Under the pieces are notes generated by a model. The model ran no database searches. It was given only the letters and a program-made list of their open reading frames with translations, and was not told the origin of the DNA. From UHGV virus genome UHGV-0039951: a stretch of 25,456 nt of DNA; one strand, 5' to 3'. The stretch's first letter is position 1; every line of letters begins with the position of its first letter. Of the stretch, positions 1-8,175 are shown one piece after another. Made by a program: the position numbers and the translations under genes. This DNA comes from a virus.

Positions 1-56
1 GTCTTGAGTCTTGAGTCTTGAGTCTTGAGTCTTGAGTCTTGAGTCTTGAGTCTTGA
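1..56 (-). repeat. Heptanucleotide tandem repeat, 8 copies of GTCTTGA on plus (= TCAAGAC / AAGACTC register on minus); tract may continue beyond the window edge
   Basis: Direct reading: positions 1-56 are 8 perfect 7-nt units, followed by cata. On the minus strand the tract follows an ATG at 59..57 in frame. Confidence 0.9.
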
Positions 57-59
57 CAT
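1..59 (-). CDS. neuO: 5' end (partial) of a polysialic acid O-acetyltransferase NeuO-like gene with phase-variable heptad repeats
   Basis: Minus strand reads AGGA-N8-ATG then (TCAAGAC)n, encoding M-S-R-L-K-T-Q-D-S-R-L-K-T-Q-D with no stops. The neuO gene of K1 prophage CUS-3 is known to carry 5'-AAGACTC-3' heptad repeats in its 5' coding region. The rest of the gene lies outside the window. Confidence 0.6.
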   Translation of the reverse strand, partial: MSRLKTQDSRLKTQDSRLK

Positions 60-75
60 ATTAGTATCCTACGTT

Positions 76-104
76 ATTTTACCACTAGTTACTTTTCTTG
101 TCAT
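76..104 (-). promoter_or_regulatory. Putative sigma70 promoter for the neuO-like gene (-35 ATGACA at 104..99, 17-nt spacer, -10 TAAAAT at 81..76)
   Basis: Hexamers read on the minus strand upstream of the ATG at 59; a weak SD (AGGA) lies between. Sequence pattern only. Confidence 0.3.
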
Positions 105-212
105 TAAAAAGCATTTAAATTTTTATATTTAATTTCGTTGACGTCAATGTTTTTTGCCAATGTACTTACTTCTTTATGTGAGCAGTTCATATTTTTGACG
201 CCAACGAAACAT

Positions 213-3158
213 TTAGTGCTTCCCTTCTATTAAGTCTAACCTAGCTTTTATTCTTTCTATTTCTCTGCGCTGCCATGCCGCCTCGATATAGAATAAGAGA
301 TCAGGTCTGACCCCCCATCTAGATCCTGCTGGCGTTATTTCAACGCGCTCAATGATGTCTTCCATTACCATCACTGGATTATCATCCTCATCAACAATGA
401 TGCTCCCGTCATTATCAGTCAGCGGCATTTCCCTTTGGCCAGTAATGACGTCATCATATACTGCGGGATAATCGTCATAGCAAAGAAAGGCATAGCGGCA
501 TGTTGTGCTTTCTTCTTCCATGAGTCCGTGAGAAATAAGAACATCACGAAGTTGCTGCGCGATTACACCATGATGTATCCTCGCCCCTTCTTCCCCCTTT
601 ATAGCGACAGCGTTCAGCCATTTATAAGCGATATACCTGACGTCACCCCAGGCATCCAGCAATGTTTCGTCAGGAGAGACCGGCTCTGTCTTTAATGTTC
701 CGTCACTGGTAACCACAGGATTGGAGCCAAGATAAACTATCGAGAACCTGTTTCCCGGACCACCAAGAGCATTTACATTATCAAGATAAGGTTTAACATC
801 TCCGTTCTCAAAAAGATGTTCGAGTGCGTTATATACCGCGCGACGTGGAGTACTGCTTCCGGAACCATGCAACGTTATCATTGCACCATCTGCTGAAGAC
901 GTTGTTTCACCGCCGCTAACGATTAATCTCTGAGCGGTAACATCATCAGACGGTACTTTCTTCGCAATAATGGCGTAATTACCCTCAAGTTTGACTTCCG
1001 CGCGAACTTGTCCTGATGTACCTGCATGGACAGTCAGTGACTGGACGGCAACATCATCTGTGAAATCAACGGGTACAGGAACCGTCCTCACGCCTGACGT
1101 CGACATAAAAGTAGGAAGCGTTCTGTTAGGAGTGGCTCCGTAGACAAAATCCCTTGAAACAAATTCTTCCTGTTTAATTTTCACCCTGAAACAATACAAA
1201 TCAGCCGGGTGACCATCGTGAACATAAGGATATTTTCTGTTGTTATCCCCTATGCTCCATGGGTTTAGAAAGTCTTCCCCACCGAAAATGTAGTACAGCC
1301 AGTTGTCTTTGATACAAACTGAACCAACACCAACCGCAGAGTTAACTATTCCGCCCTGATAAATCTGATCAGTAACATTAACCCACTCTACATTATCCAG
1401 ACTCCACTCATTGACGTTAACTCTGGTCATAAATGTTCTTGGATAGTTTCCTGCATAACGGTTATCAGGTTCTCCTCCTTCCCACTCACCAAATGCGCGC
1501 TCACTGCCAAAAATAATCAGCTCATCGCCAACTTTGGCAAAAGGAAGGTTTGAGTGATGAACATTATTTGGGAAGCGAAGAGAATTCCATGATGTACCTA
1601 AATCAGAGCTTCTGTGCAATGAACTACCGGGTTGAGTACTTAATGTCCCCCTGGTCGTCAGATACAGAATGCCATCATAATATTTTACACATGGCTCAGA
1701 TGCATTCGCCTCATATTCTGCAGGTATGCGTCTGCGAACAAAGCTACCAGGAGAACCGAAAGCATCAGAGAAATAGAGTATCCCAAGCTCGCGTGGACCA
1801 ATATCACCATTATGGTAGCCAACAGCAAAACTGTTATCGCTAATCGTCGCAAAACTGTGAATCTCAGTAACAGGAGTGCTTCCGTCAACAAAAGAAGGAA
1901 TAGTTCCAAGACTGGTTTTTCTCCATGGTGACGAGTGAAATGATGTACCAAAACTCCAGTATCTACCCTCGTTATTCTGATCCACATCCTGGGTATTTTG
2001 CGTCGTAACTGTAAAAGTATTTTTATCAATAACAGTAGTCACCGTCATATTCCCGGTAACACCTGTAACACCAGAGTTTGAGAAGTTGACAAAATCACCA
2101 GCAAATAATCCGTGATCAGTAATGCGAATATAAGCGACTTGCTGATTTGCTGCTTTCGTTATACCACCATAAACGCGAAGGCTGCGACTCATTGGGCGAT
2201 CCCACAACTCTGCAACCTGCAGTTTATTTCCGCTCACGGTCCGCGTCTCAATTACAGCAAAAAGGCGATTTCTGACAACCCCCATACTCATGCAGTGATA
2301 GTTAACTGTGGGATAGTTTTCATGTAAATCTGTAAGCCATTCCGGCGTTGTCCAGGTCTTCCCGTCATCTCCTGAGCGAACCCATGCAACATGGAGGTTA
2401 TTTACACCATGGCGGTCTCCAGCCATAAAAGGCGCATAGATGACATTGTCATATACAAACGTTTTATCCTGCGTCCAGGCGTTGTACCACGGTGTATCTG
2501 TAATTTTAAATAACTCTCCCTGGATAAAATCTTCAGAAACATAAAAAAGAGGCTGACCCGGTATTCTCTCAAATAAAAAACGAGCATTTTTAAATCGACT
2601 GACATCTGGAAGAGTTGATACTTTAAAAGTAAGCCCTCGCCCATCTATCTTTTCACCACCTGTTGCAACAGAAAGTAATTCTGATAGAGCTGATGTATCA
2701 TCATGAACACCATCACCAATAGCCCCCCAACCTCTTACATCATAACTGTCTCTCCATCTTGCTATCTGAAGTTTTGGGTATTTATTCGCTCCATCTGGGT
2801 CTTCTAATTGCTGCCGTAACTGATCAGGATCATACTTCAGCACATTCGGAAAATAGAACTGCTGTGTACCATACGCATCATAAACAGCCATAGAATGGCC
2901 TTGCACGGTTACGAATTTGGCAATCTGTCCGTTATATACCGGATATCCAGCAGCGTTAATGATGATTGGTTGAGAAACAGGAACGTGAGATCCATCTTCG
3001 TTCTCTACATAAACCTGAATCTGGTTTTCAGGATTTACCGGGTCAGTGTCAATTTTTCCGATATAAATTTTGCCATTGGCTACGGCTTTAAAAGAACGCG
3101 CCATAGTGAAGAGTTGCGAAGGCATACTCACTACAACATTGGCTGTAATGTCTGTCAT
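213..3158 (-). CDS. Tailspike protein: P22 gp9-type head-binding N-terminal domain, sialidase-like (Asp-box) receptor-degrading domain, likely endosialidase; C-terminal intramolecular chaperone (peptidase S74-type) domain
   Basis: 981 aa. The N-terminal ~110 aa ([56 protein letters not shown]...) match the P22 tailspike head-binding domain as I recall it. Two Asp-box motifs ([16 protein letters not shown]) and xRIP motifs (FERIP, RRRIP). The C-terminal ~160 aa begin at S818 in the motif SDGTLK, the pattern of self-cleaving chaperone domains of endosialidases and T5 L-shaped tail fibre. Confidence 0.85.
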
Positions 3159-3290
3159 TTAATTTGCTCCAGATACAAGGAATGGCCGCAGCATGGCTAC
3201 GGTTGGCATTTGTTACATACCGAAACGGTACGATTGTTGATTTGTACAGTGGGTTTTACGATGCCATTCCACCCATTTGGTGAGGCATTG

Positions 3291-3548
3291 ATGATGTACA
3301 GCAAATACGATGAGGCGCAGTTCCACTTGAGGCTTACACACGAGTTGCACGCTAAGATTAAGCAGCGTGCAAAAATGAATAACAGGTCTATCAATTCCGA
3401 AATTGTGGCTACGATGGAAGAATCACTCTCCAAACCATCACCTGTAAGCGGGTATCGTGATGAAGAAGAGAGGCTGGCCTCATTAATCTCGGAACGAGTA
3501 AAAGAAGTTGCGGCTGAAATTCTAAGGAAAGAAAAAACCCGCGATTAA
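3291..3548 (+). CDS. mnt: Mnt-like ribbon-helix-helix (Arc/MetJ superfamily) repressor, 85 aa
   Basis: Only the C-terminal part of ORF 2895..3548 is plausible. ATG at 3291 is preceded by GGTGAGG (3278-3284). The protein (FHLRLTHELHAKIKQRAKMNNRSINSEIVATMEESLSKPSPVSGYRDEEERLA...) closely parallels P22 Mnt (NGRSMNSELLQIVQDALSKPSPVTGYRNDAERLA) as recalled. Confidence 0.7.
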   Translation: MMYSKYDEAQFHLRLTHELHAKIKQRAKMNNRSINSEIVATMEESLSKPSPVSGYRDEEERLASLISERVKEVAAEILRKEKTRD

Positions 3549-3563
3549 GCGGGTTTAGTTTTC
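3532..3563. terminator. Bidirectional intrinsic terminator between the convergent mnt-like gene and the antirepressor gene
   Basis: Stem AAACCCGC / GCGGGTTT with loop GATTAA, flanked by an A-run on the 5' side and T-rich sequence on the 3' side, so it works in both orientations. The mnt-like stop codon lies in the loop. Confidence 0.6.
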
Positions 3564-3574
3564 ATTATAAAATG

Positions 3575-4303
3575 TTACGCCACATTTGAGCCATGTAGCA
3601 GGTGTTGTAGTGCTTTAACGCCTTCAGAATTGTAACGGAACGCCTCTACCTGTTTGCTGGAATGCGCCGATTTATCTAGGAAGAACTTCCCGTACTGCTC
3701 AGTTTTGAGGTTGTTTGCGTTAGCAATGCGACCAATCTTGTTGGCCGTTACTCCAAGCTGCTCTGCAACCTCCCCTGCTGAGTAGTAATGCTCTTCTATT
3801 GCCGGAAGAGGTATTGCATTAAAACCAACGAGCGGGTTGATTATACTTGCTGCCGCTGTCTGCTTTGCCTCAGGCGCAAGATTTGGCATCAGATCGAACA
3901 GATTGGTAACAGCTTCAACCGTCATTTTCAATGTTCTCGCTTGACGATACTCAACAAGTCCACTCGCTGATTTACCGCTTTTAATGTGCGCTTCTTGCAT
4001 ACTTTCAAGTTGGTCTACCAGTGAGCGGCGAACGGCTTTTGACTCGCGAGCGGCAACTCGCAATGCTTGCTTGATTGACATCTCAATGATAACCATCGAA
4101 GTTTTGTTCGCTTTTTGCACTACACTTTTTGTGTAGTGCTCTCCATCCAATTCATCTTCAATTTTCTCGATGAATTTGTTATTACGAACCTCCGGCTCAC
4201 CGCACTGTCTACGAGCCTGATTTACCATCTCAAGCAGGCGCTGGCTGTCAATGGTTTTATCCGTGACAACGGATCCGATGTTTGCTACATTCTTAAAAGT
4301 CAT
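3575..4303 (-). CDS. Antirepressor-like protein (AntA-like N-terminus, KilAC-like C-terminal motif), 243 aa
   Basis: ORF 3575..4354 trimmed to the ATG at 4303 (MTFKNVANIG...), which is preceded by AAGGAA at 7-nt spacing. The C-terminal motif YYSAGEVAEQLGVTANKIGRIANANNLKTEQYGKFF resembles KilAC domains. Family assignment from recalled motifs only. Confidence 0.5.
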   Translation of the reverse strand: MTFKNVANIGSVVTDKTIDSQRLLEMVNQARRQCGEPEVRNNKFIEKIEDELDGEHYTKSVVQKANKTSMVIIEMSIKQALRVAARESKAVRRSLVDQLESMQEAHIKSGKSASGLVEYRQARTLKMTVEAVTNLFDLMPNLAPEAKQTAAASIINPLVGFNAIPLPAIEEHYYSAGEVAEQLGVTANKIGRIANANNLKTEQYGKFFLDKSAHSSKQVEAFRYNSEGVKALQHLLHGSNVA

Positions 4304-4371
4304 TAGGCATTCCTTATGTGGTAGTAAGGGTGTGACATAGGCCGCCAGCAGCACACTGGCGGTTTTCTTTT
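4298..4371 (+). ncRNA. Putative Sar-like antisense RNA covering the RBS and start codon of the downstream antirepressor gene
   Basis: Candidate promoter GTGACA (4263-4268), 17-nt spacer, TACATT (4286-4291), then about 74 nt to the plus-strand terminator. The transcript would be complementary to the ATG at 4303 and SD at 4311-4316. Analogy to P22 sar RNA; inference only. Confidence 0.25.
4342..4371 (+). terminator. Plus-strand intrinsic terminator antisense to the antirepressor operon
   Basis: Perfect 7-bp stem CCGCCAG / CTGGCGG with 7-nt loop, followed by TTTTCTTTTT on the plus strand. On the minus strand the hairpin is followed by no U-tract, so it is orientation-specific. Confidence 0.55.
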
Positions 4372-4391
4372 TGCGCCGTCCGGCGCACCAA

Positions 4392-5030
4392 TCAATGAAT
4401 CCATTCCTCGCCGCGCAGTTTTGCCAGCATTGGCTGAGCGTTCTTTACGACAAAATTGTTGGTATCAAGATTCTTCATTTCACGAAGAAGTGATTTCTTG
4501 GTTTCTTCTGACATGTAGCGAGTCTCATATGCAATATCGTAAATCCTTCCAGAAAGCTCAGAACCAATTTGCTTCATTCCTGGGTAGATGTGTTTGCACA
4601 TTTGTTGACTCTTCTCCATCCACAATTGTAAGTAGCAGAGATTAACCAGCTCTTCGTCAGTAAACTGTTTTGCAATCGGTGAGCATTCTGCCTGCCGATC
4701 CAAAATATCCAGCACCCAGCGGCGGAACTCTTTAGCCTTGGGCGTAGAAGCAAACATCGCCACCAAGTGAGCGCCTCGGAGCGAGTAAACTCTGACCGAT
4801 TTGTTACGTAAGCTATTGTTTATCCCGTTGACCTTCATATTGAGGGTCAATGACATTGAGTCGGAAAACTCGTCAGCATTACGGGCATAAATTTGGCTGA
4901 TGGCATCAGTTTTTTTATAGCCGAGAGCCTTAGCTAGTTCGGTGGAGGTAAACCAGATAGACCCACCCTCTGTTACAGGGTTAAAGGTGAATCCTTGGAA
5001 GTTATAATCTGATTTTGCTATAATGTTCAT
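4392..5030 (-). CDS. ant: Antirepressor with BRO-N-type N-terminal domain (Ant-like), 212 aa from ATG 5030; ORF could extend to 5114
   Basis: The motif YNFQGFTFNPVTEGGSIWFTSTELAKALGY is typical of BRO-N/antirepressor N-termini. ATG at 5030 is preceded by AAGGAA. An alternative start at 5114 also has an SD and would overlap the arc-like stop. Confidence 0.6.
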   Translation of the reverse strand: MNIIAKSDYNFQGFTFNPVTEGGSIWFTSTELAKALGYKKTDAISQIYARNADEFSDSMSLTLNMKVNGINNSLRNKSVRVYSLRGAHLVAMFASTPKAKEFRRWVLDILDRQAECSPIAKQFTDEELVNLCYLQLWMEKSQQMCKHIYPGMKQIGSELSGRIYDIAYETRYMSEETKKSLLREMKNLDTNNFVVKNAQPMLAKLRGEEWIH

Positions 5031-5103
5031 GTTAGTTTCCTTGCATACGGTTACTGACATAGAGGCCCGGTTTGTGTTCGCGCACTGCCGGGCTTCACTG
5101 TTT

Positions 5104-5277
5104 TTACTGGGCATTAGCTCTTTCCTCTCTCAGGCTTTTAGCCAGTCGCTGCACAATCGCAGAGTTGATAGAAATTCCATCCATTTCAGCAACACGTCTA
5201 ATCTCCTCCTTCATTCGCGCTGGCAAACGAAGCTGGAAACTTTGGCTTTTACGACCTGTGTAAAGCACATCTTTCAT
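5104..5277 (-). CDS. arc: Arc-like ribbon-helix-helix repressor, 57 aa
   Basis: ATG at 5277 preceded by GGGAGA. The protein MKDVLYTGRKSQSFQLRLPARMKEEIRRVAEMDGISINSAIVQRLAKSL parallels P22 Arc (QFNLRWPREVLDLVRKVAEENGRSVNSEIYQRVMESF). The ORF-track start at 5292 is a GTG inside the SD region. Confidence 0.65.
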   Translation of the reverse strand: MKDVLYTGRKSQSFQLRLPARMKEEIRRVAEMDGISINSAIVQRLAKSLREERANAQ

Positions 5278-5298
5278 AAGTAATTCTCCCACAATGAT

Positions 5299-5356
5299 AC
5301 CAACTTGGTTCTAGAACCAATTTAACACCATTTATTTTGATGTCAAGTTGGTGCTA
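5299..5356. promoter_or_regulatory. Divergent control region: Pant-like promoter on minus strand (-35 TTGACA 5346..5341, -10 TAAATT 5324..5319) with operator-like palindromes
   Basis: Perfect 16-bp palindrome TTGGTTCTAGAACCAA (5305-5320) overlapping the -10 and start site. Inverted half-sites ACCAACTTGG (5299-5308) and CAAGTTGGTG (5347-5356). The arrangement mirrors the P22 immI Pant/Omnt/Oarc layout. Confidence 0.45.
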
Positions 5357-5388
5357 TTGTTTAGCGAACATCTTTACGTTGAGGTCAT

Positions 5389-5772
5389 ATGAGCAAGTTC
5401 CCTAGTCATGAAATGGATAGGTTCAATATCAGGCTTCCGGCAGGAATGCGGGATGCTATAGCCTTAAGAGCAAAGGAAAACGGCAGATCAATGAATACAG
5501 AACTAGTGTTTATCATTGATGATGCATTGAAGTCTCCGGTGCCTGCTGAGGTTGATAACTCAAGGATTATGAAGATTTACTCAAACCTCTCCGGGAACAG
5601 GCCATCAAACAAAGAAGAGTTTGAGCGGTGGGAGAATGAGCTAGTCAAAGCAATTTTCTACTTACTAGATAGCATCAGTTCTCATTCGCAAATGTACCAA
5701 GCTCTCAGGAGCTTAAGGCAAGATGCATATAAAAATGTTTTTGGCGATGATGCTGAAGACATCCAGTTTTGA
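5389..5772 (+). CDS. Mnt/Arc-type ribbon-helix-helix regulator with ~80-aa C-terminal extension, 127 aa
   Basis: ATG at 5389 preceded by GAGG. The N-terminus ([38 protein letters not shown]) is an RHH motif of Mnt type. Divergent from the arc/ant operon. Confidence 0.7.
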
Positions 5773-5816
5773 AGACCATTTCATCTGGTATCTTGCGTAA
5801 AACTAAGGAGGTTGGT

Positions 5817-6311
5817 GTGTCTGATTCTATGAGTTACGCTGTGCTAGTTGCCGCAACTCTATTTCTGGGGATAGGGTTGCAGATTGCGTGGTTCTTTTTT
5901 TCTAGTTTTATTAAACGTAAAAGAATTGAATCAAGGATATCTGAGATTTCTATTGCTATAGGGAAAAATGCTGAAAATCCAGAGAATGAGGCCTGCGCAC
6001 TGAATTACCTTAAAGAAAAGTTTTCCCCTGAAAAATTTGAAAACAGAATTACTGATGCTCTTGGATTGGTAATATCAGTAATTCATATGCCACTAAGTTT
6101 GCTGATAACAGTGTGGTACTTCGCCATGATCGCCGGAAGAATATTTGGCTTCATGAATATAGAGCCTGTAGTTCTTTGGGTTCCAATGATACTGCAACTG
6201 TTGTTAAGCGTTGCTATCTTTATTTTTTCTGTTTTTATAAAAATTGTCTTTGGAAGATACCCCGGAGAAGCGAAGGGATTTAATAAAGAATTCATAAAAA
6301 CTATAAAATAA
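5817..6311 (+). CDS. Small integral membrane protein (3 predicted TM helices); candidate superinfection-exclusion or lysogenic-conversion protein at the position sieA occupies in P22
   Basis: The ORF-track start at 5769 is TTG. A strong SD (AAGGAGG, 5804-5810) sits 6 nt before GTG 5817. Three hydrophobic segments. AT-rich composition relative to neighbours. Confidence 0.55.
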
Positions 6312-6333
6312 ATGCCGTCCTTGGCTTACAGTG

Positions 6334-8175
6334 CTACTGCCGGGTCGCTTCGTTAGCTAAGAGCGGGCGCACGGCAGTAGCCGCCTGATTTAGCGCTCTT
6401 TCATAGGCTGGTGTTCCTGCTTTGGTGTTTGCCAGACGTAAGAGCGCATTCCTTGCTGCTTTGGACTCATACAAACGCATCATTGCACCAAAACCAGCCT
6501 CAAGCCCCATTGATACGCCAAGAGTCGCGGTTGCGCCAATCGTCCTTATCCTGTTGGCTTGCGATTGCCCCGTCTGAGTTACTACATTTGCGGTGTCTGA
6601 CCTTGCTGTTTGCTGTAGAACTTCATGAAGAGCATCAAGCTCTTTCATATGCTTTCCAGAAAAAATAGTGTTGTAAATTTCACCACCTGACTGAGATTTC
6701 AGCTTATTAACTTCAGTGATGAACTTGGCTGGAGAGTCACCGGCCTTTTCCGCTATTTTGCTGACGTAAGCTGCACGCATAGCATCTTTACCATTATCAT
6801 CCAATGCGCTCCAGATTCGTTTCACGTCAGATGGTTTTCTGCTTAATACAACGGTATTTATAAGTTCAGGGCTGGCTTCACTACTTGCCTTATTGAGCTT
6901 GTTAGCAATGTTTTTATTAAGCACCTTATTATAAACGTTTGCATAATCGGAATTTGCTTTAAGGTATTTTGCTGCGTCTGATGCACCGCGGTTTTTAGCA
7001 ACTGCGTTACGAAGGTCTTTTGACATTGCATTCTCTACCATATTGGTAGCTGCTTTTGCCTGGTTGGGGAAGACCATAGCATCTCCCTGAACATTAGATC
7101 TAAATGCTGTTCTGTGCTGACGCAAGAGATCAAACGTAACCTCCAAATCAGTTGCAGGGTTTGCTAATTCTTCACGTAGGTTACGTAAGGATGTAAGCAG
7201 GCTTTGATTGGCAGACGTCCCAAGCCGTTCCTGTCTTGCGATCGCTGTATTCAGAGCATTCATGGTATTTGTGGTATCAACTGCGGCATTACCCATTTTA
7301 TTGGTGACGTCATTGATAACAGCGCCAGCGGCATCCTTCCGCCCCCTTAACGTGGTGGTCAGAGATTTCACCACATCATCAGGGTTGTACTCACCAAAAC
7401 GGTCAAAATAATTACTTACCAGCTTACTACGCGTTGCATATTGCTCCGCTCGCTTTGAGCCTGTCCCGAGCAAAGCCCCCTCGGCATCCTGAGTAAGGCC
7501 GCGAGTGAAAGCATTTTTCGGCGGGATAACATCAGATGTCATTGGTGTCACGCCCATCGATTCTGATGTGGCAATTTTATTCGCCACTTCTGGCGCAATA
7601 TCACCTTTTATAGCCGTTATTCCACGCCCTATTCCCTTTGCTGCTGCGGAAAGAACACCCTGAGCGGCAAGGTTAACTCCGGCATTTTTAGCTGCATTTT
7701 GTGCGAAATCGCCTTTCTGATTTGCGGCCTCTGCCAGTGAGCCAATAGCCATGCTTCCTGCCGTTCCAACTCCTGGAACTAAATACCCACCAATTGTTTC
7801 ACCGGCTTGCGCGTAGGGGTCTGTCGGTCTGTCTACTGGACGATAAACATCATCCAAAACCTTGGGTCCACCAAGCCCCTGACTGATTGCATTAATCAGA
7901 CTTGCGCCACCCTGCAAAACGTCAAATGGTATGTTCACCAGACCACGACCAGCCTGTTCTGCAATTTGCCCTGCACTTTGACCACCAGTGAGCCAATCGC
8001 CAGCTTGTTGCATCAATGATGGTTCTTCACGTGCTGGTTCATTATTGGCCTGATTAACTGTTTGTTGCTGAACAGCCTGACCAGCAAAATACTCATCAAT
8101 GGCGGTGCCAATATCTTCCGTGCTCGTACCATCAGGGAAGGTAAATGTCTTACCGTTTGCAGTTACTTTCATCAT
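6334..8175 (-). CDS. Ejection (injection) protein, P22 gp16-like
   Basis: 613 aa; last of three ejection-protein genes after the tail needle, in P22 order 7-20-16; size matches P22 gp16 (~609 aa). Assigned by synteny and size. Confidence 0.7.

Follow-up and report, generated by a model that had tools for sequence, protein, structure and literature searches.

The window, by which we mean the whole analysed DNA stretch of 25,456 nucleotides, carries on its minus strand a tailspike gene of 981 codons, and inspection of the ORF list confirmed it as described. The gene is preceded by a ribosome-binding site and, according to sequence comparison, the approximately 45 nt in front of its ATG are conserved in CUS-3 and HK620. 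Downstream follows the 5′ end of neuO, whereas an immI-like region and genes for virion proteins are located upstream. The main features with their coordinates, together with the functionally relevant residues of the tailspike, are collected in Table 1. The residue equivalences were derived from an alignment to a K1F-like endosialidase of 1064 aa, the numbering of which equals that of endoNF.

Table 1. Features of the tailspike locus and residues of the tailspike protein (aa, residue of the 981-aa protein; positions in nucleotides refer to the window)
Feature	Position	Strand	Basis or remark
neuO 5′ end, cut by the window edge	1..59	-	ATG 59..57, TC, AAGACTC seven times in full and once in part; sequence and TRF
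Tailspike gene (siaK1 homologue), complete	213..3158	-	ORF list; start ATG 3158..3156, stop 213..215
C-terminal intramolecular chaperone domain (Peptidase_S74), aa 818-981	216..707	-	Pfam PF13884 over aa 818-878, E 3e-10
Stalk (tail-spike) domain, aa 663-817	708..1172	-	Pfam PF12219 End_tail_spike, 1-160/160, E 1e-77
Six-bladed beta-propeller catalytic domain (GH58), aa 213-662	1173..2522	-	Pfam PF12217 End_beta_propel
Asp-box 2, SSDLGTSW, aa 517-524	1587..1610	-	regex; aligns to endoNF SRDIGQTW
Beta-barrel domain inserted in the propeller, aa 324-406	1941..2189	-	Pfam PF12195 End_beta_barrel, 1-83/83, E 1e-46
Asp-box 1, SGDDGKTW, aa 262-269	2352..2375	-	regex; aligns to endoNF SGDDGQTW
Endosialidase N-terminal extension, aa 146-212	2523..2723	-	Pfam PF12218 End_N_terminal, E 3e-37
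Linker, aa 114-145, start of endosialidase-type homology	2724..2819	-	module junction DPDQ/L, aa 113/114
P22 gp9-type head-binding (particle-binding) domain, aa 1-113	2820..3158	-	Pfam PF09008 Head_binding, 1-113/113, E 6e-67
Ribosome-binding site GGAG of the tailspike gene	3167..3170	-	8 nt upstream of ATG; direct sequence reading
Arc-family ribbon-helix-helix gene 1	3294..3548	+	immI-like region
259-aa ORF without Pfam match	3575..4354	-	immI-like region
Bro-N/P22_AR_C antirepressor gene	4392..5114	-	immI-like region
Arc-family ribbon-helix-helix gene 2	5104..5292	-	immI-like region
Arc-family ribbon-helix-helix gene 3	5389..5772	+	immI-like region
180-aa ORF with hydrophobic stretches, without Pfam match	5769..6311	+	between Arc-family gene and gp16-like ejection protein gene
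Catalytic residue, endoNF H350	H250		alignment
Catalytic residue, endoNF R549	R456		alignment
Catalytic residue, endoNF E581	E488		alignment
Catalytic residue, endoNF R596	R503		alignment
Catalytic residue, endoNF R647	R554		alignment
Self-cleavage dyad, endoNF S911	S818		alignment
Self-cleavage dyad, endoNF K916	K823		alignment
Essential residue in the chaperone domain, endoNF G956	G864		alignment

The comparison with known phages left little doubt about the identity of the gene. Over its full length it is 99.1% identical at the nucleotide level to siaK1 of CUS-3 (CP000711.1), and the encoded protein differs from CUS-3 SiaK1 in just five of the 981 residues (V9I, P43T, T98A, P121T and G767R; 99.5% identity), with zero differences in aa 146-662 and aa 818-981. 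Both proteins (ABQ88383.1 and CAJ29292.1 for CUS-3) share the length of 981 aa and the domain order, and in both cases neuO with poly-psi repeats is found downstream. CP000711.1 names the product 'endosialidase tailspike protein' and flags its endo-alpha-sialidase activity as directly assayed (IDA); this status of the CUS-3 enzyme was taken from the GenBank annotation and from reviews. By this near-identity, the tailspike is to be regarded as SiaK1, the endosialidase tailspike of the P22-like E. coli K1 prophage CUS-3, and is already known; it was reportedly described by Stummeyer et al. in 2006 and by King et al. in 2007. A K1 polysialic-acid depolymerase mounted on a P22-type virion, as predicted by the initial annotation, is what has been published for phage CUS-3. 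The enzyme with its three modules, the self-cleaving chaperone and the pairing with neuO are known from publications dating back to 2005-2010, and we attach little weight to them as a discovery. The sole point that is mildly new is that in this prophage the CUS-3 neuO-tailspike cassette is joined to an HK620-like backbone.

Positions 1 to 9,158 of the window recur with 100% nucleotide identity in a prophage on the chromosome of E. coli VTB96929v, a chicken isolate. The gene neighbours there comprise an acyltransferase fragment, intS, a tRNA-Arg gene and yfdC, so that the integrase and tRNA-Arg neighbourhood of CUS-3 is also found at the identical chromosomal copy of the present gene. In RS218, CUS-3 is located between dsdC and the argW tRNA gene (PMC9659370). 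At least 80% of the tailspike gene is present in 181 of 5426 complete E. coli genomes. RefSeq labels the identical copy only as 'phage tailspike protein'. The practical use of the identification lies in mending this annotation and in providing a clean case of tailspike module exchange.

Six Pfam domains were detected in the tailspike, all of them far over the curated cut-offs. The three-module composition proposed in the initial annotation is borne out for all modules by the profiles and by solved structures, and even the proposed boundaries proved nearly exact. The head-binding profile covers the N-terminal segment of about 110 residues that had been assigned to the P22 particle-binding domain. 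In a PDB search, aa 1-118 aligned to the solved structures of Sf6 gp14 (7sg7) and P22 (1lkt, 2vky); the P22 head-binding structure 1lkt matched aa 6-109 with an E-value of 6e-45. For the central part, a profile search had been suggested to distinguish a GH58 endosialidase from other sialidases, and it clearly returned the endosialidase propeller (PF12217, full profile 1-367/367, E 1e-233, 775 bits). The endoNF structures 1v0e and 3gvl align end to end over aa 146-817 with about 1047 bits, the first residue of the endoNF crystal chain being aligned at aa 145/146. By profile and structure matches, aa 146-817 are thus assigned to a GH58 endosialidase consisting of the N-terminal extension, the propeller with inserted beta-barrel and the triple-beta-helix stalk. 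The C-terminal part, aa 818-981, was expected to yield a Peptidase_S74 match, which was found with 40.8 bits at a cut-off of 22, and the endoNF chaperone domain structure 3gw6 matched the whole domain (E 1e-65). The last residue of the crystal chains 1v0e and 3gvl aligns to T817, so that the chaperone domain, once released, would start with S818, in agreement with the domain start given before; the string SDGTLK begins at this residue. The computed masses are 109.3 kDa for the precursor, 90.6 kDa for the part before S818 and 18.7 kDa for the 164 residues from 818 to 981, the last value being close to the C-terminal fragment of about 18 kDa that had been anticipated.

All five residues with catalytic roles in endoNF, namely H350, R549, E581, R596 and R647 (PMC12632334), have their counterparts in the tailspike, and the same is true for the S911/K916 dyad and the essential G956 of the chaperone domain (PMC3742443). 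Sequence identity, domain architecture and the conservation of these catalytic and cleavage residues are directly established. Both Asp-boxes noted at the outset are present and align to the boxes of endoNF. For the K1F enzyme, two Asp-boxes were described in blades 1 and 4 (PMC2716378 Table 2), and the pair in the tailspike agrees with this two-box arrangement. Nothing speaks against the assignment as endosialidase tailspike; minor points are D819 and M760. The latter aligns to endoNF Q853, a polySia-binding site in the stalk.

Taken as a whole, the gene product is almost certainly a receptor-destroying tailspike, belonging to a temperate, P22-like E. coli K1 phage of the CUS-3 type. For activity, processing and virion mounting we rely on the near-identity to characterised proteins. 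The C-terminal chaperone domain would assist the 109 kDa precursor in forming trimers. After folding of the stalk, the S818/K823 dyad would be positioned to cut the T817-S818 bond, by which the 18.7 kDa fragment is set free. [quoted passage not shown] Genes for a P22-type virion are found in the same window: Pfam matches were obtained for P22_gp7 and Inj_translocase (gp20-type injectosome translocase), and genes 1, 2, 10, 16 and 20 of HK620 were matched with 96.6% nucleotide identity.

Different readings of single modules were considered. The propeller could be a conventional domain of the GH33 exosialidase type, or have another glycan specificity, and the two Asp-boxes, two RIP tripeptides and a weak match to BNR_2 might be quoted in its favour. 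The initial annotation had in fact listed xRIP motifs as typical of sialidase propellers. The strings themselves exist (ERIP at 197 and RRIP at 476); an equivalence to the sialidase FRIP motif did not hold up. According to the Pfam boundaries, ERIP197 is situated in the N-terminal extension and hence outside the propeller, and RRIP476 has RRQIP as its counterpart in the crystallised endoNF. In exosialidases the FRIP arginine is a member of the catalytic triad (PMC10298468), whereas the active-site arginines of the tailspike, R456, R503 and R554, have no RIP context. The BNR_2 sialidase profile stays below threshold in the tailspike with 17.4 bits (Pfam cut-off 31.4), against 775 bits for the endosialidase propeller, so neither a FRIP motif nor a BNR/sialidase profile as features of the GH33-type exosialidases was found in the protein. 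Moreover, the catalytic domain does not differ from the one in CUS-3 SiaK1 at any residue, and we regard a GH33-type or otherwise specific propeller as hardly conceivable. A comparable argument concerns the C-terminus, where the chaperone domain might be retained in the mature spike without self-cleavage. The Asn that follows the S74 nucleophile is absent, with D819 in the position of endoNF N912, and N912 of the K1F enzyme was reported to be essential (PMC3742443). However, the protein has kept the S/K dyad as well as G864, and its chaperone domain shares 100% identity with the one in CUS-3 SiaK1. An Asp in this position also occurs in the solved S74-type tailspike 9vvr (SDARDK), and MYRF likewise has it after the nucleophile (S578/D579/K583; PMC3742443). 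D819 is therefore best read as family variation and does not disqualify the domain from the S74 family. We consider a permanently attached chaperone domain highly improbable.

More weight has to be given to the question whether the phage itself is still alive. In this reading the prophage would be decaying and not inducible, the tailspike gene would look intact but be a relic whose product never becomes part of a virion, and only neuO would matter to the host. CUS-3-like prophages are indeed prone to decay, and their tail and coat genes are often pseudogenised (PMC9659370). In the present case, however, the tailspike ORF shows no interruption and has kept all of its functional residues, and for the ejection proteins, coat, scaffold, portal and terminase the window likewise has ORFs that are full-length and of the size to be expected. 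These late genes show the 96.6% identity mentioned above to a viable phage, HK620, and the identical RefSeq copy has no annotated pseudogene within the first 9,158 bases. We consider such a relic unlikely and favour a functional tailspike that is carried by virions.

Among the known endosialidases, endoNF, the tailspike of phage K1F (1v0e, 3gvl, 3gw6), has the same GH58 core with the inserted beta-barrel, the stalk and the self-cleaving chaperone. Compared to endoNF, the present tailspike carries an insertion of seven residues (FVDGSTP, aa 423-429). For the endosialidase of the K1F-like Kayfunavirus vB_EcoP_F (1064 aa), identity to the present protein amounts to 69% for the propeller, 55% for the stalk and 52% for the chaperone domain, with all catalytic and cleavage residues conserved. 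The adaptors to the virion are different: that of K1F is T7 gp17-like, whereas the present tailspike has a P22 gp9-like one. The reverse holds true for the tailspikes of P22, Sf6 and HK620 (gp9/gp14), which have a homologous head-binding domain and the same genomic position downstream of the immI region, but which bind their receptors with O-antigen endoglycosidases of the right-handed beta-helix type and have no S74 domain. These show no homology to the present protein past aa 113. A further combination is found in the Uetakevirus vB_EcoP_ZX5. Its spike contains the same endosialidase module with 99.5% nucleotide identity over about aa 175-966 (803..3922 of the compared stretch), linked to another N-terminal adaptor of approximately 230 aa and another set of last 15 residues, in an epsilon15-like genome. 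A very recent transfer of the endosialidase module between unrelated podovirus lineages is thus indicated.

In a tblastn search a protein with 59% identity to aa 114-980 was noted in PV615262.1 (39.6 kb), named Acinetobacter phage vB_Aba_01KA. It represents a full endosialidase with chaperone domain, which is unexpected for the stated host.

The junction between adaptor and enzyme is sharp. HK620 gp9 is about 95% identical over aa 1-113, with an abrupt end at DPDQ/L, and has diverged from aa 114 onwards; in tblastn, every alignment to endosialidases of K1F-like, phi92 and 63D type begins at aa 114. A second breakpoint is located outside of the gene, where the 99.1% identity to CUS-3 breaks off at window position 3,203, just upstream of the tailspike gene, and the prophage backbone differs from CUS-3 further upstream. 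From position 2,812 onward, HK620 is the best match as a whole phage (96.6% identity, 54% query cover; 44% for CUS-3). The window can accordingly be equated with CUS-3 only in part, as it is closer to HK620 beyond 3,203, and from these matches the prophage is classified as a mosaic. Four of the five differences to CUS-3 SiaK1 lie within the first 121 residues. Since the residue of HK620 is present at aa 9 and 43, recombination inside the conserved head-binding segment would fit this pattern. Modular exchange is a published conclusion for these phages, as stated in the review PMC5380687 with reference to Stummeyer 2006.

The neuO-like switch that had been proposed next to the tailspike is real, as the 5′ end of neuO, a phase-variable gene for a capsule O-acetyltransferase, lies with its heptad repeats directly at the window edge. 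The layout of the poly-psi repeats is that described in PMC3046976, and in CP000711.1 this repeat is likewise annotated in the corresponding position downstream of siaK1 in CUS-3. In the identical copy of VTB96929v, the neuO array consists of TC followed by 23 AAGACTC units (9103..9265 of the compared stretch). As 23 is not divisible by 3, neuO is predicted to be phase-OFF in this copy, and the remnant annotated in RefSeq, just a 336-bp 'acyltransferase' fragment, fits this prediction. O-acetylation by NeuO lowers the killing by K1 phages, and superinfection exclusion has been proposed (PMC13001214; PMC9659370). The pair of capsule modification and capsule recognition formed by neuO and the tailspike, which had been suspected from the gene order, is thus real and already published.

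Between the tailspike stop codon and the ATG of neuO there is an AT-rich spacer of 153 bp (60..212). It contains two minus-strand matches to a sigma-70-like consensus, at 104..76 (with an extended-10 TG) and at 147..119; the promoter scan of positions 1 to 3,700 gave counts near shuffle expectation. No terminator-like hairpin was found in the spacer in the scan of 1..3700. Because of the sigma-70-like matches, which are consensus matches only, and the lack of such a hairpin, neuO may be transcribed from its own promoter in addition to read-through from the late operon.

A more far-reaching idea would be that the neuO-tailspike pair is a mobile cassette, moving as one unit between P22-like backbones via recombination in the conserved head-binding segment, and that substitutions in the stalk and binding sites with respect to K1F, such as M760 in place of Q853, tune the handling of O-acetylated polysialic acid. 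The mosaic junctions are observed, whereas the part on O-acetyl sensitivity is purely hypothetical, and we put the combined proposal forward as speculative and rather unlikely. If it were true, the neuO phase would set a phase-variable, self-directed barrier to superinfection.

The immI-like region (3294..5772) upstream of the tailspike gene is unlike those of CUS-3 and HK620. It comprises three genes of the Arc family together with the antirepressor gene and the 259-aa ORF. The adjoining 180-aa ORF presumably occupies the position where P22 has its superinfection-exclusion gene sieA; for this, synteny is the only hint. Within the region, the first Arc-like gene is separated from the 259-aa ORF by a perfect, GC-rich 8-bp hairpin at 3535..3556 (AAACCCGC...GCGGGTTT) with T runs on both strands, which looks like a putative bidirectional terminator.
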